A stretch of DNA of 24,000 nt from Alphaproteobacteria bacterium (GCA_028284945.1 JANQQJ010000007.1:37498-61497); one strand, 5' to 3'. Counted from the first letter of the stretch, positions 4,387-23,983 are shown. A program made the numbers and translations. Notes: a model not told the origin generated them from the letters alone.

Positions 4387-4393
4387 CTGACGG

Positions 4394-6713: not shown

Positions 6714-6720
6714 GCTCTCC

Positions 6721-7833: not shown

Positions 7834-7835
7834 GG

Positions 7836-8876
7836 CTATACCGGCTGCCAGGACCCTGCGGTCTCCTCCACCGCAGGATCTTCGTCTCGCACAGGGTCAA
7901 TTTCAGCGCGCAAAGCACGCAGCACCGCCACGACGCCATCGCCCGAAACAGCAGACAGTTTCATCACCGGGCGCCCGCTTTCAGCGGCCAGGCTTTCAGC
8001 CTTTTCCGCCGCTTCTTCATCGCTGAGAGCATCGCATTTGTTCAGGCCCACTAACTCGATCTTGTCGCCCAGCACATCGCCATAGGCGTCAAGTTCATTG
8101 CGCACGGTCCGATAGGACGACGCGACATCGTCTTCGGTCCCATCGACAAGATGCAGGAGAACCCTGCACCGTTCGACATGACCGAGAAACCGGGTGCCGA
8201 GCCCTGTGCCTTCATGCGCCCCTTCGATCAGGCCGGGGATATCGGCCATGACGAATTCTGCATCATCGACACCGACGACGCCCAGATTGGGCACCAGCGT
8301 CGTGAAAGGATAATCGGCAATCTTGGGCCGCGCCCGGCTGACGGCGGCGAGGAACGATGACTTGCCCGCATTGGGCAGACCAACCAGCCCGGCATCGGCA
8401 ATCAGTTTCAGCCGAAGCCAGACCCACATCTCCTGACCCGGCAGACCCGGATTGGCATGGCGGGGCGCCTGATTGGTTGAGGTCTTGAAATGCGCATTTC
8501 CGAAGCCGCCATTGCCGCCTTTCAGCAGCCGCACGCGCTGGCCCACCCGCGTAAGGTCCGCCAACAGGGTTTCCTTGTCCTCTTCGAAAATCTGAGTACC
8601 GACAGGCACTTTCAGCACCGCATCTTTGCCGCTGGGCCCGCTGCGGTTGCTGCCCGCGCCGGGGACGCCGCTGCCGGCCTTGTAGTGCTGGCGGTAGCGG
8701 TAATCGATTAGGGTGTTCAGGCCTTCCACCGCTTCGACATAGACGTCACCGCCCTTGCCGCCGTCGCCGCCATTGGGGCCGCCGAACTCAACATATTTTT
8801 CCCGGCGGAACGCAATGCACCCATTGCCGCCATTGCCGCTGCGCAGATAGATCTTGCACTCGTCGAGAAATTTCAT
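7836..8876 (-). CDS. obgE: GTPase Obg/CgtA
   Basis: 346 aa. It has the MKFLDE...GGNGGNGC..FRREK glycine-rich Obg fold, followed by G motifs [18 protein letters not shown] and NKCD. Confidence 0.95.
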
Positions 8877-8894
8877 GGTTCAGTGTTTGCGCTT

Positions 8895-8930
8895 CAAAAA
8901 CGAAAAAAGGGGAATGGCCGTCCATTCCCC
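8895..8930 (-). terminator. Rho-independent terminator downstream of rpmA
   Basis: Perfect 9-bp stem GGGGAATGG/CCATTCCCC (8909-8917 and 8922-8930) with a 4-nt loop. On the minus strand it is followed by TTTTTTCGTTTTTG. Confidence 0.6.
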
Positions 8931-8975
8931 TTCAATCAACTCTGTATGGGCGGCGCGGACGGCCAGCAGATCAGG

Positions 8976-9239
8976 TTACTCCGCCGGCAACGGCTCCACA
9001 CCCACATATTGGCGGCCACCGCGGCCAACCGTAAATTTCACATTGCCCTCGGCAACGGCAAAAATCGTGTGGTCCTTACCGATGCCGACATTCTCGCCCG
9101 GATGCCACTTGGTGCCCCGTTGGCGAATGATGATATTGCCGGGAATGACGTGCTCGCCACCGAACTTCTTGACGCCAAGACGGCGGCCAATGGTATCGCG
9201 GCCGTTCCTGGAACTACCGCCTGCTTTTTTATGGGCCAT
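8976..9239 (-). CDS. rpmA: 50S ribosomal protein L27
   Basis: 87 aa: [29 protein letters not shown]... Confidence 0.97.
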
Positions 9240-9241
9240 TT

Positions 9242-9649
9242 CTATTCCTCCGTGCTAGCGGGTGCATCATCCGCCGCTGCTGCTTCTTCTGGGGCAGGCG
9301 CCGGCTCAGCCTTTGCCTTCGCAGCCTTCTTCTTTCCACCACCGGCAACGTCGGTCACACGCAGAACCGTAATGTCCTGACGATGCCCGGCCTTGCGGCG
9401 ATAATTGTGGCGGCGCTTCTTCTTGAACACCACGATCTTGTCGGCGCGGCCCTGTTCCAGAACCTCTGCGGTTACCGCGGCGCCATCGACCAGGGGGGAG
9501 CCCACGGTGACACTCTCGCCTTCACCGACCATCAACACATTATCGAGTGTGATGGAATCGCCAGCTTCACCAGCCAGCTTCTCAACCTTGATCACGTCAC
9601 CAGCGGAAACCCGGTATTGTTTGCCGCCTGTCTTCACTACTGCGAACAT
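9242..9649 (-). CDS. rplU: 50S ribosomal protein L21 (with Ala/Pro/Glu-rich C-terminal tail)
   Basis: [25 protein letters not shown]... starts at ATG 9649. The ORF-track version (to 9955) is an artefactual upstream extension that reads through the tRNA-Ser locus. Confidence 0.95.
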
Positions 9650-9737
9650 TATCTTGCTTTCCGTTATGCGGGAGCCATATCCACCTATTGGCACAGGAAA
9701 AAGGTTTCCCGCGGGCCCTGCCGCCGAAAGAGCGCGC

Positions 9738-9765
9738 AATATAGCGGCTCGCCCCTCCAAGTCAA
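9738..9765 (-). promoter_or_regulatory. Candidate sigma70-type promoter for rplU-rpmA
   Basis: Minus strand reads TTGACT (9765-9760), a 16-nt spacer, then TATATT (9743-9738), about 85 nt upstream of the rplU ATG. Confidence 0.4.
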
Positions 9766-9864
9766 CAATTGCAGCACCCGTTTTTAGAGGGCCGGGATTT
9801 ACTTTGCAGCACACCGTGGTTATGGTCCGCGCCGCCCAAACTCGACCGGGTTTTGAGCCCCTGC

Positions 9865-10130
<266 letters not shown>

Positions 10131-10216
10131 ATAGTGTCCGCATCGATGTCGAGCTCTCGGAGCCTAGATCCAGGCCTTGGTACTATATCTGGCGACCGCT
10201 TGAATGCCTGGTTCAC

Positions 10217-11233
10217 CTATCGGCTGACCTGGACGTGCCAGGTTCCATTCTCGTCACTTTCATAGGAGATCTGGACATCAAGAAACCGGCGAATGACGTC
10301 GGAATTCGTCTCGAAATGCTGGCTAGGTCTGAGCATGGTGAAGCGGCCGCCAGCGCCGACCGCCATCGGGACCAGCAACTGGTCGGCAAGATGGTGACCA
10401 ACGGCCGCATCCGACTTCAAGAAGCGTTTGACTGTTTCGGCAAGACGCTCGCCGACCTTTTCTGCGGTCACGCCTGTCTGGCCGAAGCCGACAAACACCT
10501 CGTGCATGTTCTCGAATTCGAGCCGCACGATTACGGCATTGCCGGGACCAAGGGAAGAATAGCTCCTGACGTGAAGGTGTTCGTCCTCAATGCCGAGCCG
10601 CCGTTTGATCACAGCAAGTTCCCGTTCAGCGATCGTGCCCGGCAAATTCGAAACCATCGCTTCAGCGCTGATGCTCTTGAGGGAACCGCGCGACGTAAGA
10701 TCGAGCGTGTTCGTAAGCGTCGAGGGATGGATCTTGGCATTCCACTCACCACCCCCGGCCGGATAAAAACCGTGGGCGACAAGCTCCGTTTCCACCTCAA
10801 TCCCCGCCGTTGAAAGCGCCGCGAGGAAGCTCTCGGTAATCGCCTCATAGGAAGGCGCCGCCGGATTGTGCGTCCCGCCCTTGAGCACGAGATGGGAAAC
10901 GTCCTCGCAGGTCAGGAGCGCGGGCAATACTGTCTGGAAGACCAACCCAGTGCTGCCGGCCGTCCCAACCGCGAACTCATAGCTGCCGGCTTGCGGGTCG
11001 CCCGGCGTGAAAGTGAGGTCGCTGGAGCCCATTTCGGCCCCCTCCGTGTGTGCGCCGCAGATCTGCCGAGCCGCTTCGACACATGTCAGATGCTGGCGCA
11101 TCAGGCCCGGTCTCGCACGCTTGGCCCTGATCTTTTCGATGCGAAAAGGCTGACCCGTCGTCACGGAAAGGGTGAGGGCGGAGCGCAGAACCTGCCCGCC
11201 GCCTTCACCTTGGGAGCCGTCGATAACGATCAT
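10217..11233 (-). CDS. rtcA: RNA 3'-terminal phosphate cyclase
   Basis: 338 aa: MIVIDGSQGEGGGQVLRSALTLSVTTGQPFRIEKIRAKRARPGLMRQHLT..., the canonical RtcA N-terminus including the catalytic-His region. Lies directly downstream of rtcB. Confidence 0.92.
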   Translation of the reverse strand: MIVIDGSQGEGGGQVLRSALTLSVTTGQPFRIEKIRAKRARPGLMRQHLTCVEAARQICGAHTEGAEMGSSDLTFTPGDPQAGSYEFAVGTAGSTGLVFQTVLPALLTCEDVSHLVLKGGTHNPAAPSYEAITESFLAALSTAGIEVETELVAHGFYPAGGGEWNAKIHPSTLTNTLDLTSRGSLKSISAEAMVSNLPGTIAERELAVIKRRLGIEDEHLHVRSYSSLGPGNAVIVRLEFENMHEVFVGFGQTGVTAEKVGERLAETVKRFLKSDAAVGHHLADQLLVPMAVGAGGRFTMLRPSQHFETNSDVIRRFLDVQISYESDENGTWHVQVSR

Positions 11234-11245
11234 TTCTGGTACCCG

Positions 11246-12472
11246 TCAGCCCTTAACGCAGACAATCTGGCGAAGCGTATGGACGACCTCGACGAGATCC
11301 TTCTGTGCCTCCATGACCGCGTCGATGTCTTTGTAGGCCGACGGTGTCTCGTCAATGACACCTGCGTCCTTGCGGCATTCGACATGGGCCGTCGCCTGAA
11401 TATGTTCCTCAAGCGAGACGCGCTTCTTGGCCTCCCTCCGCGACATGACGCGGCCTGCCCCGTGAGAACAGGAATGAAAACTCTGCTCGTTTCCGAGCCC
11501 GCGCACAATGTAGGACCGGGCGCCCATGGAACCGGGGATGATGCCCATCGCCCCTTTCGCCGCCCGCACGGCACCTTTCCGGGTCACAAAGATGTTCTCC
11601 CCAAAATGGTTCTCACGAGTGACGTAGTTGTGGTGGCAGTTGACCGCTTCAACGTCGGCACCGAAGGGCTTGGCGATCACTTCGCGTGCCGCCTCTACAA
11701 GATGGCGCATCATCACCTGGCGATTGGCCATCGCAAATTTCTGTGCCCAGTCGACAGCCTCGACATAGTCGTCGAAGTGCTCGGTGCCTTCCGGAAAGTA
11801 GGAGAGGTCCTTGTCCGGCAGGTTGATGAACCACCGCTCCATATCCTTCTTGGCCAGTTCGATAAAGTGGCGTCCGATGGCGTTACCGACGCCGCGCGAC
11901 CCGGAATGCAGCATGAACCAGACCCGGTCCTCCTGATCGAGACAGACCTCTACAAAGTGGTTACCGGTACCCAGGGTTCCCAGGTGAACCAGATTGTTCG
12001 TTTTTGTCAGCCGCGGGTACTTGTCGGTGATGCGCTTGAACTGCTCGTCCAGGCCCTTCCATGCCTCGATGGTTGCCTGCGGCGGTTCGCCCCACGCGCC
12101 CTTGTCGCGTTTGCTGCCGCGGCTCTTGCTCATGCCGTGCGGAACAGCCTTCTCGATCGCCGTGCGAAGCGGCGACAGAGTATCCGGTAGGTCGGACGCA
12201 ACCAGAGTCGTACAGGCTGCCATCATGCCGCAGCCGATGTCGACTCCAACGGCCGCCGGAATGATTGCCGACTTGGTCGGTATGACGCTGCCGACGGTCG
12301 AACCGATCCCGACATGAACATCCGGCATGACCGCGAGGTGCTTGTAAATGAACGGCAGCCGGGCCGTTTTCTGCAGCTGCTCCTTGGCGCGCTCGTCAAC
12401 AGGAACGCCACGCGTCCACATCTTGATCGGCGCGCCGTTTTCACCCCGGATTACGTCAAATTCATCAGTCAT
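11246..12472 (-). CDS. rtcB: RNA-splicing ligase RtcB
   Basis: 408 aa from ATG 12472, with a GGAGG 9 nt upstream. Carries RtcB motifs PDVHVG, GVDIGCGM, GTLGTGNHF, HSGSRG, NCHHNY and SCSHGAGR. The longer ORF-track start (12556) would overlap a structured ncRNA. Confidence 0.93.
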   Translation of the reverse strand: MTDEFDVIRGENGAPIKMWTRGVPVDERAKEQLQKTARLPFIYKHLAVMPDVHVGIGSTVGSVIPTKSAIIPAAVGVDIGCGMMAACTTLVASDLPDTLSPLRTAIEKAVPHGMSKSRGSKRDKGAWGEPPQATIEAWKGLDEQFKRITDKYPRLTKTNNLVHLGTLGTGNHFVEVCLDQEDRVWFMLHSGSRGVGNAIGRHFIELAKKDMERWFINLPDKDLSYFPEGTEHFDDYVEAVDWAQKFAMANRQVMMRHLVEAAREVIAKPFGADVEAVNCHHNYVTRENHFGENIFVTRKGAVRAAKGAMGIIPGSMGARSYIVRGLGNEQSFHSCSHGAGRVMSRREAKKRVSLEEHIQATAHVECRKDAGVIDETPSAYKDIDAVMEAQKDLVEVVHTLRQIVCVKG

Positions 12473-12494
12473 CACTTCTTTTCCTCCAGACGAT

Positions 12495-12566
12495 GCCCTC
12501 GCGACAAGGTTTAGGTGAAACGCAGGTCGAAACAAACGATGTAGTTCCACCGACATTCGCGAGGGC
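12495..12566 (-). ncRNA. Y-RNA-like ncRNA, minimal module (third in the array, YrlB-like)
   Basis: A 10-bp perfect terminal stem GCCCUCGCGA/UCGCGAGGGC encloses AUGUC-GGUGGAA-CUACAUCG...UUUCACC-UAAACCUUG. The architecture and motifs match those of the YrlA-like RNA upstream. Confidence 0.6.
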
Positions 12567-12589
12567 CGTAATTCCCTTTCTCAACAGGC

Positions 12590-12702
12590 TGGGGACAAGG
12601 TAGTTGCAAGACATCTCTCCGTCTGCCGGGGCTTCCGGCAGGGGAGGCCGGACTCGAACCGGAGCTTTCGCTCTCCCAATGTAGTCCTGCAGGCATTCCC
12701 CA
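12590..12702 (-). ncRNA. Y-RNA-like ncRNA with T-arm-like hairpin (second in the array)
   Basis: Terminal stem UGGGGA/UCCCCA, then AUGCCU-GCAGGA-CUACAU and the partner strand UCUUGC-AACUACCUUG. Internal elements are GGGAG/CUCCC, a GNRA hairpin AGC-GAAA-GCU, the T-arm-like CCGG-UUCGAGU-CCGG and a 7-bp hairpin CUGCCGG/CCGGCAG. The terminal stem is weaker than in the other two modules. Confidence 0.5.
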
Positions 12703-12745
12703 TTTTCTTCTTTGGTTCTCGATTGTTTCCTCAAACAGAGGGTGT

Positions 12746-12885
12746 CGGTCGGGGCGACAAAGGTTGACGAAACGCTTCCCGCTCTACCGCTGAGCTACGG
12801 GCCCTCATGTTGGACCCGGCGGGATTCGAACCCGCGACCTGGCGATTATGGATCGATGTAGTTCCGTCCGCATTCGCCCCGACCG
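12746..12885 (-). ncRNA. yrlA: YrlA-like Y RNA with tRNA-mimic domain
   Basis: A 12-bp perfect terminal stem CGGUCGGGGCGA/UCGCCCCGACCG starts 13 nt after the rsr stop. The interior holds tRNA parts in permuted order: T arm GCGGG-UUCGAAU-CCCGC, acceptor 3' strand CGGGUCC, loop, acceptor 5' strand GGGCCCG, then D arm GCUC-AGCGGUA-GAGC. This matches the published description of bacterial YrlA RNAs next to rsr. Confidence 0.8.
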
Positions 12886-12898
12886 ATTCCTCTTCGTT

Positions 12899-14452
12899 CT
12901 AGACTTCAATCCTTTCAATTTCCTCAACCCAGTATTCGGCCGTGGTCTTGCCTTCAACGAACCCCGCGAGGGTCTTGAACACCGCATCGGAAAAACCGCC
13001 GACGTTCAGAACATCTTCACGGGCCTTGGCCTGCGTAGTGCCGTAAGGCGCGATGTCGATGCAGACAAGCTTCGCCTTCGGGTTACGGCACTTCAGCCTC
13101 TCCCACTCGGCCATCATGGCAGTCCCGCGACCGGAGGCTCGGTCCATCCAGGACTGGTTGTCCGATACGAAGACAACAAGGTCCGGTGCCTCCTTTCGCC
13201 TGTTCAGGACCGTAAGCGCCGCTGAACAGTTGGTGCCACCACCGCCATAAGCGGCCAGCTTGCCGGCATTGGTCATAACGCTATCGCGCGTGGACAACCG
13301 GGCCTCATGCACCCGGTCATCGAACGGCAGCACCATGGCCTGCCGGTTCTTCCGCAGGATCGCCGCCGCGACAAGCGCCGCAACGTCCACGAACCGAACC
13401 TTCGTCGAGGCGCCCTTGCGGTAGCCGGTGACCGGCCAGTTCATGGATCCCGAGACGTCGACACAGACCGCGACCGAGCCGTTGATCGCCGGGACGTTCT
13501 CGAGCGCGATCTCCATCGCGTCCTCAAGCGCCTGTCGAACAACCATCGGCACGCGCTCATCCGCCGCTGAATACGCCATCATCAGCTGATACGGCATGAC
13601 CCGCGCCCTGCGGATCGCTTCCGCGTCGGCAAGCTTTTCAGCAATCTTGCGATCCATCTTGCCGATCGTAAAAACGCCCTGACGAACAAAGGTGTTCAGG
13701 TTCATGCGCACCATCTGCCACCGGCCGCGCTCGGCGATCTTCGCCCAGTGCTTTTTCGACAGCGGCAGGGCGGTCAGCATCTGGAACGGCACATCCGGGA
13801 TTGCTCCCTGCCCCGTATCCTTGAAGCGGATGAAAACCTGCACCTCTGCCGGAAGCAGGTCAATGTCGGTTGGCTTGTCGATCAACCACGCGAAGAACGC
13901 ATTGCGTGCAGCGTCTTCCGCCTTCGGGTGGACCATCTTGATGACGTCGGCAATCGACGGCGACTGACCTACGGCTGCCTGCAACAGCATCCGGTCCGAG
14001 GCATTCACCAGCCAATGCTGGATCATCCGCTTCGGCCGCGTTCCCAGGGACTTGCGGCCCACCGCGCCCGACCGCATGATCTGCACAAACGTCCGCAGCA
14101 TCCGACCGTTGTCGATAACCCGATCAAAGGTACGGGCAAACAGCACCGGATCCTTGGTCGACAGGGCCGCCAGCAAGTAGGCCGGCGCATCCTTCATGTG
14201 ACCGTTCTTGCGCGCGTAGATCGCCGCCTGCGCAATAAACAGCGGTTCGACCTCGACTGCCGCGAGGTAGAGTTCCTCCGCCTGGAACGTCGCGTCTGCG
14301 TAGAACACGTCCGCGAAAGTTCCAGTGATCGCCAACTGCGCCAAAAGGTGGCGCGCATCGTGGGTGTAGGCGGGACCGCCCGCCCGGTTCCAGCTATTCG
14401 TCGCCGGGATCAGGCGGCCCCTCAACGACGCAAACACGGATTTGTTTGCCAT
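12899..14452 (-). CDS. rsr: Ro 60-kDa autoantigen ortholog (Rsr; TROVE plus vWA domains)
   Basis: 517 aa. The N-terminal TROVE-type region (NRAGGPAY...FYA...) is followed by a C-terminal vWA/MIDAS segment (VCVDVSGSM). Position between rtcR and the Y-like RNAs/rtcBA matches the Salmonella-type rsr-yrl-rtcBA operon. Confidence 0.92.
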   Translation of the reverse strand: MANKSVFASLRGRLIPATNSWNRAGGPAYTHDARHLLAQLAITGTFADVFYADATFQAEELYLAAVEVEPLFIAQAAIYARKNGHMKDAPAYLLAALSTKDPVLFARTFDRVIDNGRMLRTFVQIMRSGAVGRKSLGTRPKRMIQHWLVNASDRMLLQAAVGQSPSIADVIKMVHPKAEDAARNAFFAWLIDKPTDIDLLPAEVQVFIRFKDTGQGAIPDVPFQMLTALPLSKKHWAKIAERGRWQMVRMNLNTFVRQGVFTIGKMDRKIAEKLADAEAIRRARVMPYQLMMAYSAADERVPMVVRQALEDAMEIALENVPAINGSVAVCVDVSGSMNWPVTGYRKGASTKVRFVDVAALVAAAILRKNRQAMVLPFDDRVHEARLSTRDSVMTNAGKLAAYGGGGTNCSAALTVLNRRKEAPDLVVFVSDNQSWMDRASGRGTAMMAEWERLKCRNPKAKLVCIDIAPYGTTQAKAREDVLNVGGFSDAVFKTLAGFVEGKTTAEYWVEEIERIEV

Positions 14453-14625
14453 TTCTCTGCTCTCTTCTCTTCGTTCACGAGAACAGAGTGCCGTTAAGAA
14501 AGTTGCATTAGAACAAAAAATCTGATTTTCACTAAGTAACTGAAATTAATGACTAATACGATAATACGGCCTAGTTAGAACGGGTATTTTTGTATTATTA
14601 TCGATACTAATATATAACGTTATAT
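14453..14625. promoter_or_regulatory. AT-rich divergent control region between rsr and rtcR
   Basis: The region is conspicuously AT-rich in a GC-rich context. It holds inverted repeat CGATAATA (14559-14566) / TATTATCG (14596-14603). A 16-nt perfect palindrome TATATAACGTTATATA (14611-14626) abuts the rtcR ATG. A weak -24/-12-like element sits at 14478-14493. Confidence 0.45.
14478..14493 (-). promoter_or_regulatory. Weak candidate sigma54 (-24/-12) promoter for rsr-yrl-rtcBA
   Basis: Minus strand reads CGGCAC-TCTGT-TCTCG, against the consensus TGGCAC-N5-TTGCW. The -24 GGCAC is good, but the -12 lacks the GC dinucleotide. Position about 25-40 nt upstream of the rsr ATG is appropriate for an RtcR-dependent promoter. 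Confidence 0.25.
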
Positions 14626-16230
14626 ATGAGTAGGAAGACAGTTGCCGTTGGATTCGTTGGGACCGTCCTGGATGCCGGAAAGGCGTCGGACCGCTGGAAC
14701 CGCTGGCGGCCCACCGTTTCGCTCTGCCAGCATGGGGACCTGCTGATCGACCGCCTCGAACTGCTTCATGATCGTCGCGCGCTGAGTCTCGCTGAGCACT
14801 TGGTTTCCGATATCGCGCATGTCTCGCCGGAAACGGAAGTGTGTCTGCGCGAGGTAGCGATCCAAAACCCTTGGGATTTCGAGGAGGTCTACGAAAAACT
14901 GCAGGACTTCGCGCTTGCCTACCCATTCGATCTGGACGCCGAGAACTACCTCGTCCATCTGACGACCGGGACCCATGTTGCACAGATTTGCATGTTTCTC
15001 CTGACAGAGTCCCGCTACATCCCCGGGCGCCTATTGCAAACCGCGCCACCGCGAAAGCGCGAGCCGGGACCTGGTTCCTATTCAATCATCGATCTCGATC
15101 TCTCCAAATACGACCGGCTTGCACAGCGGTTCGAGACTGAATCGGAGAACGCGACCTCCTATCTGAAAGGGGGGGTCGAAACCCGGAATGCGGATTTCAA
15201 CGCCATGATCGAACGCATAGAGAGGGTTGCCATTCGATCCGGCGCGCCGTTGCTTCTGCTGGGCCCCACAGGTGCTGGCAAGTCAGCGCTCGCACGTCGC
15301 ATCTACGACCTTAAGAAGGCGCGTCATGTGGTTTCCGGCAGGTTCATCGACATCAATTGCGCCACCATAAAGGGTGAGCATGCGATGTCGTTCCTGTTCG
15401 GACACAGGCGAGGTTTCGCAGGCATGCCCACCGAACGCCGCGGCGTTCTTCGGGAGGCGGACAAGGGTGTCCTTTTCCTCGATGAAATCGACGAACTCGG
15501 TCTCGACGAACAGGCGATGATTCTGGATGCGGTAGAGCACGGAACGTTCTACCCGCAGGGGTCGGACCACGAAGTCACCAGCAGCTTCCAACTGATCGCC
15601 GGCGCCAACAAGGACCTGGCTGTCGAGGTTCGCGAGGGTCGCTTTCGCGCCGATCTCCTCGCGCGCCTCAATCTATGGACCTTCAAGCTTCCGGGCCTTG
15701 CAGAACGACCGGAAGACATAGAGCCGAACCTGGAGGTCGAGCTCCGCAAGCTGATGTCCCGGGGCGAAGACAAAATAGCGTTCGCCGCCAATGCGTGGCG
15801 GCGCTATGTAGCCTTTGCAACGGATCCGGCCAGTCGCTGGTCCGGCAACTTCCGGGATCTCAGCGCATCAGCCACGCGGCTCGCGACACTCGCGCCCCGT
15901 GGGCGTATTACCGTGGGGCTCGTCGATGAGGAGATCGAACGCCTCAAGACGCAATGGTCCGCCGGCGAATCGGACAGTGACTTCCGGTTGGTTGCCGATG
16001 TCATGGGGGAAGAGGCGGCAGCAGAACTGGACCGACTGGACGTGGTTCAACTAGCGGAGGTCATTCGGGTTTGCCGTCGGTCGGCTTCGATGAGTGCGGC
16101 GGGCAAGATTCTATTCGCCGCCTCAAGAACCCAGCGGAAAACCAAGAATGACTCAGACAGGGTCAAGAAGCTTTTGGAACGCTTTGGTCTGGAATGGACT
16201 TTGATCAAGGGCATAGAGGACGCATCATAA
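14626..16230 (+). CDS. rtcR: Sigma54-dependent transcriptional activator RtcR (CARF-like sensor, AAA+ domain, HTH)
   Basis: 534 aa. RtcR-type N-terminus (VAVGFVGTVLDAGK...RW.RWRPTV), then AAA+ Walker A GPTGAGKS, Walker B LFLDEIDEL, a sigma54-interaction region and a C-terminal HTH. Divergent from rsr. Confidence 0.92.
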   Translation: MSRKTVAVGFVGTVLDAGKASDRWNRWRPTVSLCQHGDLLIDRLELLHDRRALSLAEHLVSDIAHVSPETEVCLREVAIQNPWDFEEVYEKLQDFALAYPFDLDAENYLVHLTTGTHVAQICMFLLTESRYIPGRLLQTAPPRKREPGPGSYSIIDLDLSKYDRLAQRFETESENATSYLKGGVETRNADFNAMIERIERVAIRSGAPLLLLGPTGAGKSALARRIYDLKKARHVVSGRFIDINCATIKGEHAMSFLFGHRRGFAGMPTERRGVLREADKGVLFLDEIDELGLDEQAMILDAVEHGTFYPQGSDHEVTSSFQLIAGANKDLAVEVREGRFRADLLARLNLWTFKLPGLAERPEDIEPNLEVELRKLMSRGEDKIAFAANAWRRYVAFATDPASRWSGNFRDLSASATRLATLAPRGRITVGLVDEEIERLKTQWSAGESDSDFRLVADVMGEEAAAELDRLDVVQLAEVIRVCRRSASMSAAGKILFAASRTQRKTKNDSDRVKKLLERFGLEWTLIKGIEDAS

Positions 16231-16752: not shown

Positions 16753-17055
16753 TCAACCAGGGAACTTTCCCTTGAACCGGACGGGAAAAGGGTCTCGGGT
16801 CATTGGGTGAGAAGCTGGCGTCTCACAGCCGACAGTGTGGGGGGATAGCTTCAGGCATCGCAGCATTGGCTCGACCGCAGATTCCCAGAGCATGAGCACG
16901 ATGATTCCGTTATAGGGGGTGCCGTTGAACCGAAGCGGCCTTGTGATCTGCCCTGCGGCGCGCTCGGCGTTCCATGGCTTGAGCCATGTACAAACACCGT
17001 TCTCCAAGTCGGTGACGATCTTGTCAGTTACACGGGTGTAAACATCAGCTTTCAT
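16753..17055 (-). pseudogene. ardC: Truncated antirestriction protein ArdC (N-terminal ssDNA-binding domain fragment only)
   Basis: An AAGGAG RBS and ATG 17055 give MKADVYTRVTDKIVTDLENGVCTWLKPWNAERAAGQITRPLRFNGTPYNGIIVLMLWESA. This matches the ArdC N-terminus for about 60 aa, then homology is lost (near 16870). Full-length ArdC is roughly three times longer. Confidence 0.6.
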
Positions 17056-17643
17056 TGCCTTTCTCCTTTTGGCTAATCGCGTTTGCGCTGTTGCTGCAAA
17101 CGGACTAGCCAAGCAGCAATGAGCGGGGGTTGGGCCGTCACAGGCCGGACGCGGGCAAAAGGGGATTACCCGGCCTGCACGACCCCAGACTGACAAAGGA
17201 AGGGGGAGGAAGGTCGGGGAACGCCCCGCAGACGCCCGGAGAGAAACGAACGGCCTGGCCTTGACGGCCAAGGGGCCACAGGCCCCAAAAAAAAGGGCAA
17301 AAAAGAAGCGCCAAGGGCCGTTCAACAGAGGCGGCGCAGCCGCCTAAATGCGCGAGGGATTGTCACCGAATGGCCGAGACCCTGCGCAGCAAAGCGCCGC
17401 AGGCGCGAGTAGAGCCCGGTTCGGCTACGCCGGACGCGCCCCCGACTTGATTCAAGAGAAGACGGGCGGTCGCTTCCAGGACATGGCCTTGAAGGCAGAA
17501 TGCTGTTGCCTTTGGGTGGTAGTCTATGTTGATTAATGCTTGGGAAGCACACGCATTGGTAGATGTGAAGAATTGGTTCGAGAAGTAAGGACCAAGATTA
17601 TGTCGTTCAGTAATACGTACATAAAACTAGTTTTGGAGATGTA

Positions 17644-19572
17644 ATGCCCTGGTCTGATGATTTGAATCCTGCAACTCCGGCTTACCAAATTGCCGCTTCG
17701 ACAAATCAACGCGTGCGGGTTGTGGCAGGACCGGGAACGGGCAAGTCCTTCGCTATGAAGCGTCGAGTTGCCCGACTATTAGAGAGTGGCGTAGCACCCG
17801 GCGCGATTCTTCCCGTCACCTTCACACGAGTTGCCGCCGAAGATTTACATCGCGAGCTGGTGGGGATGGGGGCTCCCGGTTGCGACGACCTTGAAGGCGT
17901 CACTCTTCATAGCCTCGCGCTGCGAATGCTCATGCGAAACCATGTGTTGGGTGCTACGGGACGTGTGCCGCGACCGCTGAACGAGTTTGAACTTGAGCCA
18001 CTGATTTGCGACCTGATGGCTGCTCATGGGGGCAAGAAAGAGGTCAAGAAGCTGAGAATGGCCTACGAAGCAGCATGGGCGCGCCTACAACATCAGCAAC
18101 CGGGATACGCGCCGTCTGCAGCAGATGCCGCTTTCCAGGCCGATCTATTGGCTTGGCTTCGCTTTCACGAAGCGATGTTGATTGGCGAGGTCATTCCGCA
18201 ATTTCATCAATATCTGCATTCCAATCCTGCTGCTGCGGAGAGAAGCGAATTCGCCCATATTCTGGTCGATGAATACCAAGACCTAAATCGCGCGGAGCAA
18301 GGAGTGATTGAGCTACTTTCTGACGCAGCAGAGGTGTGCATTGTCGGTGACGATGACCAATCGATTTATAGCTTCAAACATGCCCATCCTGACGGCATTC
18401 GGGAGTGGCTGAATGCTAACGCGGGCGCTGACGATCTCGGGTTGGACGATTGTCGTCGCTGCCCAACTCGTGTGGTCTCGATAGCGAACAGCTTGATCGA
18501 TCATAACGCGCTTCGGCCAGTACCGCGTCCGCTTAACCCGATGCCTGCGAACGGAGAGGGTGACGTTCGGATCATCCAGTACCACGACATCACGCAGGAG
18601 GTTAATGGAGTCGCGGCGCTTGTCGCCCAGATGATCGCCGATGGGGTTCCGGCGGGAGATATCCTTGTACTCACTCAAAGCAGAGCGTTCGGAATGCCTC
18701 TATACGAGGCTCTTGTCGCGGGCGATGTTCCGACCAAGTCGTACTATGCCGAGACGGAACTAAGTCGTGACGACGCACAGCGCGCGTTCGCTTTGCTCAA
18801 ACTGTTCGTAAATCGACAGGATCGGGTCGCCTTGCGTTGGCTCGTCGGAGTCAACGGAAACAACTGGCATGCCGCTGGATATCGCCGCGTGCGTGAGCAC
18901 TGCGAGAATACAGGCGCGTCGCCGTGGGACGCTATGACCCAACTGGAAAGTGGGGCACTTTCCCTTGCATATACAACCGGCATCGTCGAGTCGTTCAGAG
19001 AAATTGTCCAAGAATTGGATGACCTAGAAGCATTGCCTGATCTCTCTGCCGTGGTCGATCACCTTTTCCCTGACGGGCAAGATGCAACACGGGACATTCG
19101 CGCTCTCGCGTTGACCGTTCTCGAGGAGGTGGAAGAGGATGATCGCGAAGCCTTCATTCGTGACCTTTCGACGGCAATCAGCCAGCCTGAAATCCCGACC
19201 GAGATCGAAGACGTGCGAATTATGAGCTTGCATAAGAGCAAGGGGCTAAGCTCTCCCGTCACCATCATCGCGGGGTGCGTCCAAGGGTTGCTACCGCGAC
19301 CTCCGGACGACGGCCTTACGCCCGCAGAGCAGGCTCAACACCTAGAAGAGCAGCGACGACTGTTCTATGTCGGTATAACGCGCGTGAAAGCAGCCCCCCT
19401 TGACGATAAACCAGGCACACTAATCCTGACGTACTGCCAGGAGATGCCGGTTAGAGATGCATTGTCAGTCGGGATCACACCTGCGCAGCAACAGTATGGA
19501 TCAGCGATACTTCACGCGAGTCAGTTCATTCAAGAGCTTGGGCCGACCGCGCCAAACCCCATCGCTGGCTAA
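17644..19572 (+). CDS. UvrD/Rep/PcrA-family SF1 DNA helicase
   Basis: 642 aa with a GGAG RBS. Motifs are Walker A AGPGTGKS, motif II ILVDEYQDLN, motif III IVGDDDQSIYSF, motif V LHKSKGLSSPVTII and motif VI LFYVGITRVK. Codon usage is lower in GC than the core genes. Confidence 0.85.
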   Translation: MPWSDDLNPATPAYQIAASTNQRVRVVAGPGTGKSFAMKRRVARLLESGVAPGAILPVTFTRVAAEDLHRELVGMGAPGCDDLEGVTLHSLALRMLMRNHVLGATGRVPRPLNEFELEPLICDLMAAHGGKKEVKKLRMAYEAAWARLQHQQPGYAPSAADAAFQADLLAWLRFHEAMLIGEVIPQFHQYLHSNPAAAERSEFAHILVDEYQDLNRAEQGVIELLSDAAEVCIVGDDDQSIYSFKHAHPDGIREWLNANAGADDLGLDDCRRCPTRVVSIANSLIDHNALRPVPRPLNPMPANGEGDVRIIQYHDITQEVNGVAALVAQMIADGVPAGDILVLTQSRAFGMPLYEALVAGDVPTKSYYAETELSRDDAQRAFALLKLFVNRQDRVALRWLVGVNGNNWHAAGYRRVREHCENTGASPWDAMTQLESGALSLAYTTGIVESFREIVQELDDLEALPDLSAVVDHLFPDGQDATRDIRALALTVLEEVEEDDREAFIRDLSTAISQPEIPTEIEDVRIMSLHKSKGLSSPVTIIAGCVQGLLPRPPDDGLTPAEQAQHLEEQRRLFYVGITRVKAAPLDDKPGTLILTYCQEMPVRDALSVGITPAQQQYGSAILHASQFIQELGPTAPNPIAG

Positions 19573-19677
19573 CAGCGACATTTGCACGTTTTTGCCAGCC
19601 AGCCGCCGCATGAACGTCGAGCGGGTCCAGCGAGGCGGTGCGTGCCAAAACACCTACCAAGAAGCAGATACGAAAAT

Positions 19678-21084
19678 TCAGTCAGCCAAGGCGCTTGCCT
19701 CATCCGCACGCTGATGCAAAAGGTCGAGCAAGTCCGCAAGCAGGGCCGCGTCTGCGCCCGTCGAAACAGCCAACATGTCCCCAGCCTCTTCTATGGCTTT
19801 GGGCAGGGTCAACCATGGTACGGTTTCGGGCTCCGCCATCAGGCGACGGGTAATTGCAGCGTCGTATGCAAGCCTCGCCGTCTCCTCCATCACATTCGGC
19901 GCTTCGGAATAAATTAGCCTCTGCCCGAGTGAACGCAGCCTGTCGTCGGCAAGTTGCCCAACCAACGCCACGCGATCAAGCCAATCCGTTTCGTGAAAAC
20001 GTTCCATCAGGGCTTTGTCGGTATTGCTGGCAAATCCGTCATAGATTTGTTCTTCGACGTGCGCTGAAGGCTTGCGTTCTTCTCGGGTCTGAAGCAGGGC
20101 TATGACAAGCCGTTCGCAAAGTTCGCTATCGTTTTTCAGGCGCGCGGATCGCCGGTGCAGCTCATCAAGATCCGGTCCGGCGCTGCGTAAGTCTTCCGGT
20201 GCATCATCATATGGCAGGAGAATGGGGCCGGCGTTGGATCGCATGCTGCGAATTGGCTTCGGACGCTCTCCCAATCGCTCAATCAAATCAGACTCGGATA
20301 ATACCGCGAGTTTTTCGGGGTCATGGGCAAGGTCGAAAACAAACATCTCTGACCCGTTGTCAGGATTCACGCCAATATGGGCAACGGTCCATGAATGCGG
20401 TTTCGCATAATAGAAATCGGTGAGGATGAACACGTCCTCCTCGGTAGCAAAATCGGCTACTGCGGCCTTCTGCGCAAAGCGCACAAACCCTGACCAGTGA
20501 CCAGGAACACGATCAGCGATTAGGCGGCACATATTGATCGTGGCTTCGACATCGGCCATAGCGTCATGTGCGTCGGCATGATCGAAGCCGTTGGCTGGCG
20601 CGAGCTGGTCGAGTTTGAAACTGTATCGATTGCGATCGTTAAGCGGAATAGTCAGGGCGTTCGGTTCGAAACGTGCCACGGCCTGAATCATGCGCAAGCT
20701 ATCTGTGCGGCAATTGCCATTCGTGTTGGTTAGATAGGGCGGATGGAGGGTCTTGTATAGGGCTTGGCGCAACAAGTGTTCATCAAAACCGAGTGAATTA
20801 TGGCCGATGAATATGGCCGGGGACCATTCGTTCATCTTGGCCCGGATCGACCGGACCATTTCGTAATGGCTGGGAAGGTCTGGGTCAGTTAGCTGCTCCA
20901 CGGTCACGCCGGTAACGCGCATAGCGCCGGGCGCTGGCACGACATAGGGGAGCAATCGGCACCGAATTTCAAAGCGTTCCAACTCGTTCAGGTCATGGTC
21001 AGCCCTGATCGCCCCGAACTGAAGTATCTGATCAAAGGCTGTATTCGTCCCCGTGGTTTCCGTGTCATAGAAGACGAAACTCAT
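19678..21084 (-). CDS. sbcB: Exodeoxyribonuclease I-like (SbcB family) DEDDh 3'-5' ssDNA exonuclease
   Basis: 468 aa, close to the full length of ExoI. Carries Exo I FYDTETTG, Exo II GHNSLGFDEHLL and Exo III HDAMADVEAT (DEDDh). The N-terminal region parallels E. coli SbcB (...QF.AIR.D......E.......P....P.PGA...TG.T). A GGAGGGG RBS precedes the start. Third gene of the xre-immA operon. Confidence 0.8.
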   Translation of the reverse strand: MSFVFYDTETTGTNTAFDQILQFGAIRADHDLNELERFEIRCRLLPYVVPAPGAMRVTGVTVEQLTDPDLPSHYEMVRSIRAKMNEWSPAIFIGHNSLGFDEHLLRQALYKTLHPPYLTNTNGNCRTDSLRMIQAVARFEPNALTIPLNDRNRYSFKLDQLAPANGFDHADAHDAMADVEATINMCRLIADRVPGHWSGFVRFAQKAAVADFATEEDVFILTDFYYAKPHSWTVAHIGVNPDNGSEMFVFDLAHDPEKLAVLSESDLIERLGERPKPIRSMRSNAGPILLPYDDAPEDLRSAGPDLDELHRRSARLKNDSELCERLVIALLQTREERKPSAHVEEQIYDGFASNTDKALMERFHETDWLDRVALVGQLADDRLRSLGQRLIYSEAPNVMEETARLAYDAAITRRLMAEPETVPWLTLPKAIEEAGDMLAVSTGADAALLADLLDLLHQRADEASALAD

Positions 21085-21110
21085 ATCGCCCCTCCATCAA
21101 TTCGGCTTAC

Positions 21111-21641
21111 TTAGGCGAACAGATTTCCAAGCCTGAACCGCATGGCCGCAGCACTGACCTTATATTTTCTGGCAAGAGCGGTGATCGCCGCTTCATCATC
21201 AATATCGATTGGGTATTCCTTTAGCGACAGCGCCAGAAACGAAGCAGGCATCAAAAGTTCTGCCGCAAAAAGGTTGGCCTCAACCTCCATCTCGTCTTCG
21301 CCGGTAGCGGAATTGGAATCGCGCATAAGCATCGTCGTGAAACTCTTATCGACGTGGATTTCCTTAGTGATTGCACGGCGATGGCACACCAGATGACCGC
21401 ATTCATGCGCAATCGTGAAACGTTGCCGGTTCGGATGATGCAGGGCGTTGACGCCAATGATTGGCGTGCCATCCTTCACATAGACCATCCCGGACAATTC
21501 ATCGTCGAGCGGCGAAAAACGCAGCTGTGCACCGAGTGCTTTCGCGATGCGCTCGACAGGTACAGGAGCGGAAGTCACGTTGTGCTCCGCCAGGAGCTCG
21601 CCTACCTGGCTCTGGATCGATTTTCGTTTGCTCTGCTTCAT
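21111..21641 (-). CDS. ImmA/IrrE-family (M78) zinc metallopeptidase
   Basis: 176 aa with the HExxH motif in FTIAHECGHLVCH. Its start overlaps the xre stop (ATGA at 21638-21641). Confidence 0.85.
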   Translation of the reverse strand: MKQSKRKSIQSQVGELLAEHNVTSAPVPVERIAKALGAQLRFSPLDDELSGMVYVKDGTPIIGVNALHHPNRQRFTIAHECGHLVCHRRAITKEIHVDKSFTTMLMRDSNSATGEDEMEVEANLFAAELLMPASFLALSLKEYPIDIDDEAAITALARKYKVSAAAMRFRLGNLFA

Positions 21642-22006
21642 TCGTCCTCTCTTCCCTCGGCTCCCGCGTCGTGGCTATTCAGCGCACCACCCATGAGATC
21701 TAGCACCTCCCGCCGCTGCTTTTCAGTCAGGCCGTCGCCAGAAATTCGTAAGTCTGATTCCGCGCCATCTCTTTTTGATTTGGGGCGAGGAAGCAGTAAC
21801 AAAGCCGCGGGGGATTCGAGCTGAAGCGCGTCGGCGAGACCAAATAGGTGGTGGACGAGCACCTGCTGGCGTCCTGCCTCGATATTCGCCAGTGATGCGC
21901 GGGAAATGCCAACTTGTTTGGCTAACTGGACCTGCGTGCGCCCAAGCGCCTTGCGCAAGTCCCTGATTCGCATTCCCAAATTCTTGTAGATTTGTTCAGA
22001 TTCCAT
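21638..22006 (-). CDS. XRE-family helix-turn-helix transcriptional regulator
   Basis: 122 aa with an N-terminal HTH (LGMRIRDLRKALGRTQVQLAKQVGISRASLANIEAGRQ). The C-terminal half is charged and likely disordered or involved in oligomerisation. Confidence 0.85.
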   Translation of the reverse strand: MESEQIYKNLGMRIRDLRKALGRTQVQLAKQVGISRASLANIEAGRQQVLVHHLFGLADALQLESPAALLLLPRPKSKRDGAESDLRISGDGLTEKQRREVLDLMGGALNSHDAGAEGREDE

Positions 22007-22014
22007 GACTTCTG

Positions 22015-22041
22015 AATATATACAAACGCGCCTCGTGTCAA
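22015..22041 (-). promoter_or_regulatory. Candidate promoter for xre-immA-exo (short-leader or leaderless)
   Basis: Minus strand has TTGACA (22041-22036) and TATATT (22020-22015). The -10 ends only about 8 nt before the xre ATG, which implies a very short or absent leader. The spacer is about 15 nt if TATATT is used, so the register is uncertain. Confidence 0.35.
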
Positions 22042-22045
22042 TTAG

Positions 22046-22073
22046 ACAAACAAAATGTTTGTATTACAAACAT
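22046..22073. promoter_or_regulatory. Candidate operator: three ACAAAC/GTTTGT half-sites forming two overlapping palindromes
   Basis: ACAAAC (22046-22051), GTTTGT (22057-22062) and ACAAAC (22066-22071). ATGTTTGT-ATT-ACAAACAT (22055-22073) is a perfect 8-bp inverted repeat. A fourth ACAAAC lies at 22022-22027. The sites sit between the divergent xre and ubl operons. Confidence 0.45.
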
Positions 22074-22180
22074 CATTAATGATCTTTTAGTTGACATTTT
22101 TGACCAGGTCGAGCAAAAGGGAATCAGGAACGGGGCCATCCGGCACCGCACCTGAAGCTCTGAGACAAATGGAGGCCTAA

Positions 22181-22435
22181 ATGGCTCAAGAAGAGAAGAA
22201 AACGGTCACGATCGTCATCGACGGGACCCCGCATGAAGTCGAAAAAGGTGAATTGACTTATGTCGAGGTGGTGACTCTCGCGGACCCCGGGTACCCGCAG
22301 CACCCGGAGACGACGTACTCGGTAACCTACAAACGTGGGCACGGCAATAAGCCGGAAGGAACCCTGTCCCCCGGCGGCACGGTCAAGGTTAAAGACGGAA
22401 TGGTTTTCAATGTTTCACGAACTGGTCAGTCATAA
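22181..22435 (+). CDS. Single beta-grasp ubiquitin-like protein of the 'multiubiquitin' type
   Basis: 84 aa with a GGAGG RBS. The sequence is TVTIVIDGTPHEVEKGELTYVEVVTLA...TYSVTYKRGHGNKPEGTLSPGGTVKVKDGMVFNVSRTGQS. From memory this matches the pattern of proteins annotated as multiubiquitin domain-containing that sit next to ThiF-family genes. It does not end in Gly. Confidence 0.7.
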   Translation: MAQEEKKTVTIVIDGTPHEVEKGELTYVEVVTLADPGYPQHPETTYSVTYKRGHGNKPEGTLSPGGTVKVKDGMVFNVSRTGQS

Positions 22436-23579
22436 CAATGACATTAAGAAGCTGCTCGTTAAGGGGTACGCCATTGCGTTGGACAGCAACCACCTTGTCG
22501 TAAGGGACGTTCCCTATATCGACAGCGAAGGGCAGCTGCAGAGCGGCGCAATCGTAAGCAAACTAAAGTTTGTGAATAAACAGCGGGCTGCGCAGCACGA
22601 CCACCAGATATACTTTGCAGGGTCGCATCCGCACGGCATTGACGGCAAGCCGATCAAGAACCTCGGCGGCGGGCCGCACTCCATCACCCTGGACAGCTCC
22701 GATGTTGTTGTCGAGCGCTCGTTCTCTAACAAGCCTAAAAATGGCTTTGCCGATCATTTCGATAAGATCGAGAGTTATGTAAGAATTATTTCAGGCCCGG
22801 CGATGGAACGCGACGGCGCAAACCCGTTCACCTTCAGGAGCACCGAGAAGGTAGCTGGAGAATCGGTTTTTAAATTTCAAGACACGCTAACAAGCCTCGC
22901 TGAGATCGGCGACCTGTCAGCGTTGTTTAAGGATGAGGTAATCGCCATCATCGGCTTGGGCGGGACCGGCTCCTATGTGCTCGACCTGATGGTGAAAACA
23001 CCCGTAAAGCGCATCTTGGGGTACGACCGCGATCCGTACCACGTCCACAACGCCTTCCGATCACCTGGCAGGCTTGATGAGGAGAAATTCGATCAACCGA
23101 AAGCAGCGGTTTATCAAGGACGATACGAAAACTTTCGTGAAGGCGTGACGCTTGTTGCAAAACATATCGATGCGTCCTGTGCAGACGAGCTCAAGGAGGT
23201 CACTTTCGCATTCGTATGTGTCGATAAAGGATCATCGCGGGCAGGTATCTTCGACCTCCTGATCGCGCAATCGATTTCTTTCATTGATGTCGGATTGGGA
23301 CTTGACCGCAAGCAGGGCGCATTGAACGGCATGCTACGGGCCACTTACTTCGCAGCAGACAATGCCGAGGCCTTGCGGGATCGCGATCTTGCAGAGCTTG
23401 TTGATCACGGGAATGACGAGTACCGCGTCAATGTCCAAACAGCGGAGCTTAACGCACTCAATGCCTGCATCGCGGTGATCCGCTACAAGCAGATCAAAGG
23501 CTTCTACCTCGATGAAAACGCATTCAACCACATGCTCTTCAAAGTGAATGATCTGACGATGCTGGGAGAAGAACTATGA
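22410..23579 (+). CDS. ThiF/E1-like adenylyltransferase with Cys-free N-terminal UBC(E2)-like domain
   Basis: 389 aa from ATG 22410 (MFHELVSHNNDIKK...), overlapping the ubl 3' end by 26 nt. The C-terminal half has the Rossmann/adenylation motif IIGLGGTGSYVLDLMVKTPVKRILGYDRD...HNAFRSPG. The N-terminal ~190 aa contain no Cys and include AGSHPHGIDGKPI, reminiscent of the E2 HPN loop. Confidence 0.8.
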   Translation: MFHELVSHNNDIKKLLVKGYAIALDSNHLVVRDVPYIDSEGQLQSGAIVSKLKFVNKQRAAQHDHQIYFAGSHPHGIDGKPIKNLGGGPHSITLDSSDVVVERSFSNKPKNGFADHFDKIESYVRIISGPAMERDGANPFTFRSTEKVAGESVFKFQDTLTSLAEIGDLSALFKDEVIAIIGLGGTGSYVLDLMVKTPVKRILGYDRDPYHVHNAFRSPGRLDEEKFDQPKAAVYQGRYENFREGVTLVAKHIDASCADELKEVTFAFVCVDKGSSRAGIFDLLIAQSISFIDVGLGLDRKQGALNGMLRATYFAADNAEALRDRDLAELVDHGNDEYRVNVQTAELNALNACIAVIRYKQIKGFYLDENAFNHMLFKVNDLTMLGEEL

Positions 23580-23983
23580 TTGACAGGTTCCGTCTCCAGC
23601 GCGTGCAGTACATACCTAAATCGCTTGAACCGGGCATTCTGTATGTATCAGAGGAGTTCGATGTAGCTGCCCATCTGTGCGCATGTGGCTGCGGCACTAA
23701 AGTGACAACGCCGCTGGGGCCAACAGAATGGAAATTTTCTGAGAAGGACGGAGTTCCTAGCCTGTGGCCCTCGATCGGCAACTGGCAGCTTCCATGTAGG
23801 TCGCACTACTCCATCATTGAGAGTCAGACTCGTTGGGGCGAGCAATGGAGCGAAGCGCAAGTCCTTGCTGGCCGCAAAGCTGAAGAAGCTCGGCGAGAGG
23901 CATATTACGTCGAGAAGGATCGGCTTAATCGCAGGCCCTTTGCTCGGTTCTGGCGGTGGGTGCGAGGCCTCTTCAGGCTATGA
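23576..23983 (+). CDS. Small Cys/His-rich protein (DUF6527-like), probable zinc binder with amphipathic basic-aromatic tail
   Basis: 135 aa; its start overlaps the E1 stop (ATGA). It carries H-x-C-x-C-x-C (HLCACGCG) plus C-x-x-H (PCRSHY), and a C-terminal RRPFARFWRWVRGLFRL. From memory this resembles the DUF6527 family that co-occurs with multiubiquitin/ThiF pairs; I could not verify this here. Confidence 0.55.
   Translation: MIDRFRLQRVQYIPKSLEPGILYVSEEFDVAAHLCACGCGTKVTTPLGPTEWKFSEKDGVPSLWPSIGNWQLPCRSHYSIIESQTRWGEQWSEAQVLAGRKAEEARREAYYVEKDRLNRRPFARFWRWVRGLFRL

Follow-up and report, generated by a model that had tools for sequence, protein, structure and literature searches.

Positions 19678-22006 of a 24,000-nucleotide stretch of alphaproteobacterial DNA (GCA_028284945.1, JANQQJ010000007.1:37498-61497; this whole stretch is the window, and positions are counted from its first letter) carry three genes on the minus strand. 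They encode an XRE-type repressor with a helix-turn-helix (HTH) domain, a short M78 metalloprotease and an exonuclease of the exonuclease I (ExoI) type. The first two products resemble the CapH and CapP proteins of a published defence switch, and the genes lie back to back with a Type II Bub defence operon. The evidence described below indicates that the trio is very probably a conserved cassette. Its parts are as follows.

21638-22006, minus strand: xre (capH-like), 122 amino acids, cassette gene 1; Pfam HTH_3, 5e-12
21111-21641, minus strand: short M78 metalloprotease (CapP/ImmA-type), 176 amino acids, gene 2; Peptidase_M78, 1.6e-26, motif HECGH
21085-21110, minus strand: spacer between capP and the exonuclease gene (exo), 26 nucleotides, with GGAGG at 21095-21091 (read from the sequence)
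19678-21084, minus strand: ExoI-like DEDDh 3'-5' exonuclease, 468 amino acids, gene 3; RNase_T, 9e-15, and Exonuc_X-T_C, 2.8e-22

The xre stop codon and the protease start codon overlap in a shared ATGA. The protease stop codon (TAA) occupies 21113-21111, and the GGAGG sequence lies 6 nucleotides 5' of the exonuclease ATG at 21084. A spacer of 26 nucleotides leaves no room for a terminator plus a promoter, and similarly short junctions are found elsewhere, the gap between protease and exonuclease genes having a median of 20 nucleotides across 45 trio loci and measuring between -4 and 30 nucleotides in 41 of them. The single terminator-like match (20363-20349) falls within the exonuclease gene and is below chance expectation. 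Spacing and synteny together suggest that the three genes are co-transcribed. The order and sizes of the reading frames, the ATGA overlap and the 26-nucleotide gap with its ribosome-binding site are all as an earlier description, made from the DNA alone (the sequence-only reading), had placed them.

That reading had also named fortuitous adjacency of the three genes as a refutation and had proposed a neighbourhood census. The census was selected on the exonuclease and covered the 80 best of 385 relatives, on contigs from one genome per species. The HTH, M78 and exonuclease genes were contiguous, in this order and on one strand, at 49 of the 80 loci, which belong to Alphaproteobacteria, Gammaproteobacteria, Entotheonella, Nitrospinaceae, Planctomycetes, Acidobacteria, Verrucomicrobiota and Gemmatimonadota; remnants of the protease gene were kept at two further loci. 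When loci were selected on the protease (66-71% identity), the exonuclease gene was directly downstream in 4/4, and RefSeq annotation gives the same order on Rhizobium and Mesorhizobium plasmids. Moreover, Mantel tests returned r values of 0.88 for Exo and CapP, 0.84 for Exo and CapH and 0.87 for CapP and CapH (each p=0.001). This combination of synteny and co-evolution rules out fortuitous adjacency.

At two Sphingomonas loci (L052, 7983-12738, and L058) the parts are rearranged: the exonuclease gene converges on a ThsB(TIR)-ThsA(SIR2-SLOG) Thoeris operon, beyond which CapH-CapP are encoded.

A further census was selected on BubBD and comprised 80 metagenomic Type II Bub loci. The exonuclease was encoded at only one (L085), which is a 94%-identical copy of the present element, and this indicates that the exonuclease belongs to the regulator cassette and not to Bub. 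Its role as a Bub component is thereby ruled out. The idea that it might be a fourth component of the neighbouring system of ubiquitin-like protein (Ubl) and E1 enzyme has to be given up for the same reason, and also because the trio serves many unrelated cargos.

Relation of the three proteins to known families

The exonuclease proved to be of full-length ExoI type, as had been claimed. Residues 2-386 are collinear with residues 10-406 of Escherichia coli ExoI (1FXX, E 1e-40), and all three ExoI domains are represented, RNase_T and Exonuc_X-T_C by Pfam matches and ExoI_C in the public record. An AlphaFold2 model of the protein (pLDDT 84, pTM 0.84) superimposed on full-length ExoI structures with TM scores of 0.72-0.75 over ~480 columns. 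Residues D7, E9, D101, H173 and D178 align to E. coli D15, E17, D108, H181 and D186, and in an alignment of sequences from 79 loci with E. coli SbcB all five DEDDh residues are kept in 78-80 of the 80 sequences.

E. coli ExoI (SbcB; 1FXX, 4JS4) thus shares with the exonuclease the DEDDh nuclease domain followed by SH3-like and helical C-terminal domains, together with the same catalytic residues. It differs in being the product of a housekeeping gene, whereas the gene described here is part of a regulated mobile cassette, and identity between the two proteins is ~26-27%. In the phylogeny against sbcB that the sequence-only reading had proposed, the exonuclease is set apart from E. coli SbcB on a long separate branch. 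The score against the NCBIfam ExoI equivalog NF008746 is 218 bits, below the cut-off of 260, and these two results rule out orthology to housekeeping SbcB.

At least 1,754 homologues of the exonuclease were found in the protein database at E<=1e-10, from many phyla and on both chromosomes and plasmids. The top library match is the PADLOC model RTasSbcB (PDLC03817), at 400 bits; the link to a reverse transcriptase at which this name hints was discarded, no reverse transcriptase being present among the neighbourhoods inspected. The 2.9 million viral contigs of IMG/VR hold one true relative only, and matches in phage collections are E. coli sbcB at prophage junctions, which excludes a phage-borne origin.

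The repressor matches PADLOC capH (1.5e-10) and PDB entry 7T5U (7.6e-4). The protease matches PADLOC capP (3e-33), over model positions 3-150 of 242 only, and CapP in PDB entry 7T5T (291 amino acids; 3e-06), with only residues 84-174 of the latter aligned. These matches bear out the assignment of the pair as CapH/CapP-like. The M78 domain fills residues 33-171 of the 176 in the protease, and the GAF domain of CapP is absent. In published CapP the GAF domain is C-terminal and is the proposed ligand binder (10.1101/2022.04.27.489752), and single-stranded DNA (ssDNA) activates CapP to cleave CapH (10.1101/2022.04.27.489752).

The short form of the protease is characteristic of the family. The 120 closest homologues are 159-180 amino acids long, nearly all of them 174-177, and every exonuclease-linked protease is short (173-206 amino acids) and lacks the GAF domain. 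Long CapP genes (258-312 codons) adjoin Type II Bub operons in 13 cases, none of which has the exonuclease; short proteases adjoin such operons in five cases, with the exonuclease present in one and verifiably absent in at least three. The exonuclease is therefore correlated with the short protease class and is not obligatory for it.

The cassette is like the CapH and CapP genes of the E. coli MS115-1 CBASS (Lau et al. 2022, 10.1101/2022.04.27.489752) in having an XRE gene followed by an M78 protease gene, both divergent from a defence operon, and a shared promoter region with a palindromic operator (here a candidate one). It differs in its protease (176 amino acids without GAF, versus 291 with it), in its third conserved, ExoI-like gene, and in a cargo that is mostly E1/Ubl rather than CBASS. 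The association of CapH/CapP with Bub, Bil and CBASS operons has already been published (PMC11601596, PMC10557695): the pair stands beside 168 of 544 Bub operons (PMC11601596) and, in published counts, beside Bil/6C in 25 of 162 operons. The operon in the window is the same as the published Type II Bub operon (6E.2; Ye et al., PMC11601596), of which the exonuclease is not a part. In full-text literature searches no account of an HTH-M78-ExoI operon came up, and none of the CapH/CapP, Bil and Bub papers that could be searched mentions an exonuclease. The statement in the sequence-only reading that no system of this composition had been described thus holds, in the literature searched, for the exonuclease and fails for the association of CapH/CapP with Bub. 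What is new here is the short protease together with an ExoI-like third gene; the pairing of CapH/CapP with Bub was already known.

ImmR/ImmA of ICEBs1 and DdrO/IrrE of Deinococcus are alike in that an XRE repressor is cleaved by an M78 protease on DNA damage, but they control excision or a repair regulon and have neither a co-transcribed ExoI-like gene nor a divergent defence cargo. The ImmA protein of Bacillus subtilis is short, has no GAF domain and functions without an exonuclease. DNA-damage-responsive switches known to control defence are CapH/CapP, CapW and CapK/CapS.

Two further exonucleases invite comparison. Cap18, the CBASS-associated exonuclease (10.1101/2022.01.04.474952; 10.1101/2025.03.04.641389), is likewise a DEDDh enzyme encoded with a defence system, where it sets the activation threshold by destroying a signalling intermediate. 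However, Cap18 is a dimeric, RNase T-like enzyme of ~200 amino acids with specificity for 2'-5' dinucleotide intermediates, and its gene is part of CBASS operons, whereas the exonuclease described here has 468 amino acids and ExoI architecture, is encoded in the regulator transcript and faces mostly non-CBASS cargo; these differences rule out membership of the Cap18 family. In DRT10/UG17 (10.64898/2026.04.29.721553) an ExoI-type enzyme quiets a defence system by degrading ssDNA/cDNA. There the enzyme is the chromosomal housekeeping SbcB, whereas no reverse transcriptase was found among the loci examined here.

The divergent control region and its cargo

The intergenic region between xre and the Bub operon (22007-22180) is 174 bp long, with a GC content of 42.5% versus 57.9% in the whole window. 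A scan of 19400-22300 for the sigma-70 consensus gave no promoter match, and the promoters were therefore deduced from an alignment across loci. The aligned sequences were the 190 nucleotides upstream of capH in 13 cassettes, which between them carry five types of cargo; among these cassettes the control region is homologous up to the cargo start codon. The following elements were recognised.

22018-22013, minus strand: -10-like TATTCA of capH, ending 6 nucleotides before the ATG
22021-22027 and 22045-22051: GTTTGT half-sites, in addition to O1
22036-22041, minus strand: predicted -35 box TTGACA of capH-capP-exo, a near-invariant block in the 13-cassette alignment
22055-22073: candidate operator O1, a perfect palindrome, ATGTTTGTA-N-TACAAACAT, 9+1+9
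22091-22096, plus strand: predicted -35 box TTGACA of the cargo (bub), an invariant GTCAA on the capH strand
22131-22148, plus strand: GC-rich hairpin in the cargo 5' untranslated region (that of bubA here), a position-conserved inverted repeat

In the capH promoter the -35 box is followed by a 17-nucleotide spacer that holds a GTTTG half-site and then by a TATnAA -10 box; the second half-site is conserved as well. There is no Shine-Dalgarno sequence before capH, and the spacing from the -10 box to the ATG is kept in the 13 cassettes. A -10 box ending ~6 nucleotides before the ATG implies a leaderless transcript, and capH mRNA is probably of this kind. On the cargo side TTGACA is followed by a GATAAT-like -10 box, and the ribosome-binding site of the cargo is also a conserved block.

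The arm length of O1 was reached in 7 of 5000 shuffles, and its columns are conserved in the alignment. Most trio loci have a palindrome ~55-82 nucleotides upstream of capH, the sequence of which shifts with CapH divergence (ATGTTTGTA.TACAAACAT, ATTGCGTGTA.TACACGCAAT and ACACGCAATGCGTGT). A palindrome that is conserved in position and changes in step with CapH is as expected for a repressor and its operator, and to this extent the palindromic operators that had been proposed for the AT-rich region do appear to be operator-like. The hairpin has an equivalent inverted repeat ~142 nucleotides upstream of capH in at least nine cassettes, including some with other cargo. RNAalifold gives it six pairs, four with compensatory changes, and a covariation term of just -0.1 kcal/mol, which is weak.

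The divergent operon in the window encodes BubA, BubBD and BubE in the published Type II order.

22181-22435, plus strand: bubA, Multi_ubiq Ubl, 84 amino acids, first cargo gene; Pfam 5.8e-18
22410-23579, plus strand: bubBD, fusion of E2-like DUF6791 and E1 ThiF, 389 amino acids; 1e-43 and 8e-9
23576-23983, plus strand: bubE, DUF6527, 135 amino acids; Pfam 1.7e-20

The start of bubBD is at 22410 (389 amino acids on the public contig), and the listed GTG at 22335 is over-extended. The cargo was tallied across the 49 trio loci, of which 45 could be assessed.

17 loci: Multi_ubiq / 129-amino-acid protein / Prok-JAB / ThiF operon (PADLOC: only generic E1-E2 on ThiF)
10 loci: BilABCD (PADLOC BilD, 4e-141)
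4 loci, plus the window: Type II Bub
4 loci: JAB-E1 fusions (Type I Bub-like)
2 loci: other E1
2 loci: Type II CBASS
1 locus: CBASS with no E1 detected
2 loci: TIR / SIR2 / patatin-SLOG (Thoeris-like)
2 loci: AAA ATPase
1 locus: insertion sequence (IS) element
4 loci: contig too short to judge

Two further cargo types, a Type III CBASS and a Fic operon, come from the loci that were selected on the protease. Exonucleases with the same type of cargo differ by a mean distance of 0.465, those with different types by 0.475, and the nearest exonuclease neighbour has the same type of cargo in only 10 of 29 cases; indeed, the exonuclease of the window shares 81% identity with one whose divergent cargo is a Multi_ubiq-JAB-ThiF operon. 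Cargo is thus nearly independent of exonuclease relatedness, and the trio is therefore a modular unit whose cargo is exchanged.

The commonest cargo, a four-gene operon represented by L010 (4445-6924) and 16 other loci, encodes a Multi_ubiq protein of ~240 amino acids, the 129-amino-acid protein, Prok-JAB and a ThiF protein of ~290 amino acids. PADLOC gave no match for its Ubl, 129-amino-acid and JAB products, and the operon is a candidate for an uncharacterised Ubl defence system.

Possible roles of the exonuclease

The cassette may be pictured as a switch composed of the capH-like repressor, the short GAF-less protease, the ExoI-like exonuclease and the 174-bp bidirectional control region, set back to back with a defence operon (here Type II Bub). 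By homology with E. coli CapH/CapP, CapH would repress both promoters until it is cleaved by the protease upon DNA damage or infection. Because the exonuclease is encoded in the autoregulated transcript, its level would be expected to rise together with that of the cargo. The enzyme would then degrade 3'-ended ssDNA, the published activator of CapP; removal of this ssDNA would set the activation threshold, and newly made CapH would restore repression, so that the response would be a pulse or a reset. There is precedent for such a function in the host SbcB, which keeps the toxicity of DRT10 in check by breaking down its DNA product (10.64898/2026.04.29.721553), and in Cap18, a small DEDDh exonuclease that sets the CBASS activation threshold (10.1101/2025.03.04.641389). 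The role of signal attenuator, by which the exonuclease removes the ssDNA inducer, as in the feedback idea of the sequence-only reading, is the likeliest of those considered but is put forward tentatively, its probability falling somewhat short of even.

Several observations weigh against signal attenuation. Since the protease has no GAF domain, a point that the sequence-only reading had missed, ssDNA may not be its signal and cannot be assumed to be so. Short proteases of the same type stand beside Bub without an exonuclease at L093 and L126, so the switch itself can do without this enzyme. The O1 palindrome sits between both -35 boxes and not over the core of the cargo promoter. A generic feedback role does not account for the strong bias of the cargo towards E1/Ubl, with an E1 encoded in 39 of the 45 assessable cargos. 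Finally, the pocket of E. coli ExoI for the C-terminal tail of the single-stranded DNA-binding protein (SSB), which we take to be formed by R148, Y207, K227, Q311, R316 and R338, corresponds to E, G, E, P, a gap and K in the exonuclease when the two proteins are aligned, at an overall identity of only 27%. The aligned residues (140, 199, 216, 291 and 317) are replaced family-wide, with E in place of K227 in 62 of 79 sequences. The exonuclease may therefore differ from ExoI in its action on SSB-coated ssDNA, and the replacements hint either that SSB docking has been lost or that there is another partner.

The exonuclease could instead be an effector, as the sequence-only reading had also suggested, or a repair enzyme, induced by the switch, that acts beside any attached cargo by breaking down ssDNA intermediates of phages or plasmids (rolling-circle, recombination or conjugative) or by processing damaged host DNA. 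The strictly kept catalytic residues and complete processive ExoI architecture would suit such a function, as would the 400-bit score on a reverse transcriptase-associated SbcB model, and copies without CapH/CapP are still found amid defence genes (type I restriction-modification, Thoeris, helicase/nuclease). A GajB-like UvrD helicase gene adjoins the exonuclease gene in the window and lies directly downstream of it in L008, but these are just two loci. An effector would also sit oddly with the position of its gene in the regulator transcript rather than in the cargo operon, and the exonuclease is almost never alone with CapH/CapP. Moreover, a 3'-5' ssDNA exonuclease by itself is a weak barrier to double-stranded DNA phages, and the finding of one true relative in 2.9 million viral contigs is uninformative on anti-phage activity. 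An effector role is accordingly rather unlikely.

A different proposal is that the GAF-less protease relies on the exonuclease as its sensor or co-activator: on binding 3'-ended ssDNA, the exonuclease would trigger CapH cleavage, through a complex or through its products, and so replace the GAF domain. The invariably short length of the linked proteases and the lack of an exonuclease at all 13 long Bub-adjacent CapP genes would be accounted for, and the stop and start codon overlap of the two genes at three loci and the substitutions in the presumed SSB pocket, which could mean a different partner, also fit. The tight protease-exonuclease co-evolution (r=0.88) is in keeping with it, yet co-inheritance alone would predict as much. 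An enzyme that served only as a sensor could dispense with a fully conserved active site, and short proteases do occur without the exonuclease, at L093 and L126 as in the case of B. subtilis ImmA, so that a sensor function appears quite unlikely. The exonuclease might also be tied to Ubl conjugation, either as a Ubl target or by exposing or processing a DNA-bound substrate. This would explain why ThiF/E1 operons, of at least five operon families, face so many of the assessable cassettes, but the cassette also serves Type III CBASS, CBASS in which no E1 was detected, Thoeris-like, Fic and AAA-ATPase cargo, and the near absence of the exonuclease from Type II Bub loci speaks against such a tie. 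Nor is a nuclease needed for the published Bil and Bub activities (PMC10557695, PMC11601596), and the bias may just reflect the ancestry of the regulator clade; a direct Ubl link is very unlikely. The more inclusive claim, that the ExoI-like protein is integral to a GAF-less class of CapH/CapP switch (as an ssDNA sensor that licenses the protease or as a pulse timer) and that the E1/Ubl preference is a real coupling of ssDNA processing to Ubl conjugation, is unlikely as well, although the E1 bias and the replacement of the presumed SSB-pocket residues keep the sensor and Ubl-coupling proposals alive.

Least likely of the alternatives, and highly improbable, is that the pair is merely the ImmR/ImmA module of a surrounding integrative element, governing excision or lysogeny, with the exonuclease and Bub as passengers. 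Genes for a serine recombinase, a terminase and a ParB-methylase do lie just past the window end, with an ArdC fragment on the other side. Across at least 49 loci, however, what is conserved next to the pair is the exonuclease gene and a divergent defence operon with a common control region, and not a recombinase; the contexts are chromosomes and plasmids of many phyla, and viral contigs contain almost no members of the family.

An ssDNA exonuclease hard-wired into the switch offers a direct handle on how the ssDNA signal is shaped, thresholded and turned off. The cassette is widespread, has been overlooked and is directly testable: surveys of Bub, Bil and CBASS that scored only HTH and M78 genes missed its third conserved gene. 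It also flags its divergent partners as candidate defence operons.

Surroundings of the cassette in the window

Positions 1-16230 of the window hold core genes and an Rsr/Y-RNA/RtcBA/RtcR locus. The latter, an RNA-repair locus at 10217-16230, is a known arrangement, and the sequence becomes island-like from ~16.3 kb, with the ArdC fragment, the GajB-like UvrD helicase, the trio and Bub.

10217-11233, minus strand: rtcA
11246-12556, minus strand: rtcB
12748-12880, minus strand: Y-RNA-like YrlA; Rfam RF02553, 73.6 bits
12899-14452, minus strand: Ro60/TROVE-vWA protein
14626-16230, plus strand: RtcR, sigma-54 activator
16753-17325, minus strand: ArdC fragment; ArdcN positions 2-58 of 123 only (N-terminal part)
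17644-19572, plus strand: orphan UvrD-family helicase, convergent with the exonuclease; top PADLOC matches GajB and RTasHel

The ArdC fragment, probably left over from a conjugative element, marks the left-hand side of the island, which begins after rtcR. Past bubE, the public contig (L001, 1-7100) encodes a large serine recombinase, DUF2924 and DUF3489 proteins, a terminase large subunit, a DUF5681 protein and a ParB-N6/N4 methylase; the cassette and Bub therefore border on an integrative element of prophage-like character.

The UvrD-like helicase was considered as a fourth cassette gene and was ruled out, a close homologue being found in L008 only. At that locus, which lacks CapH/CapP, the exonuclease gene is followed immediately, in the same orientation, by the gene for a 70%-identical helicase, and the exonuclease is preceded by a protein of 1133 amino acids with RNaseH-like and SF1 helicase parts. 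Elsewhere in the window, the reading frame for ribosomal protein L21 (9242-9955, minus strand, 237 amino acids) is N-terminally over-extended, its Pfam domain beginning at residue 103, and the extension overlaps tRNA-Ser(cga) at 9865-9954 on the opposite (plus) strand.

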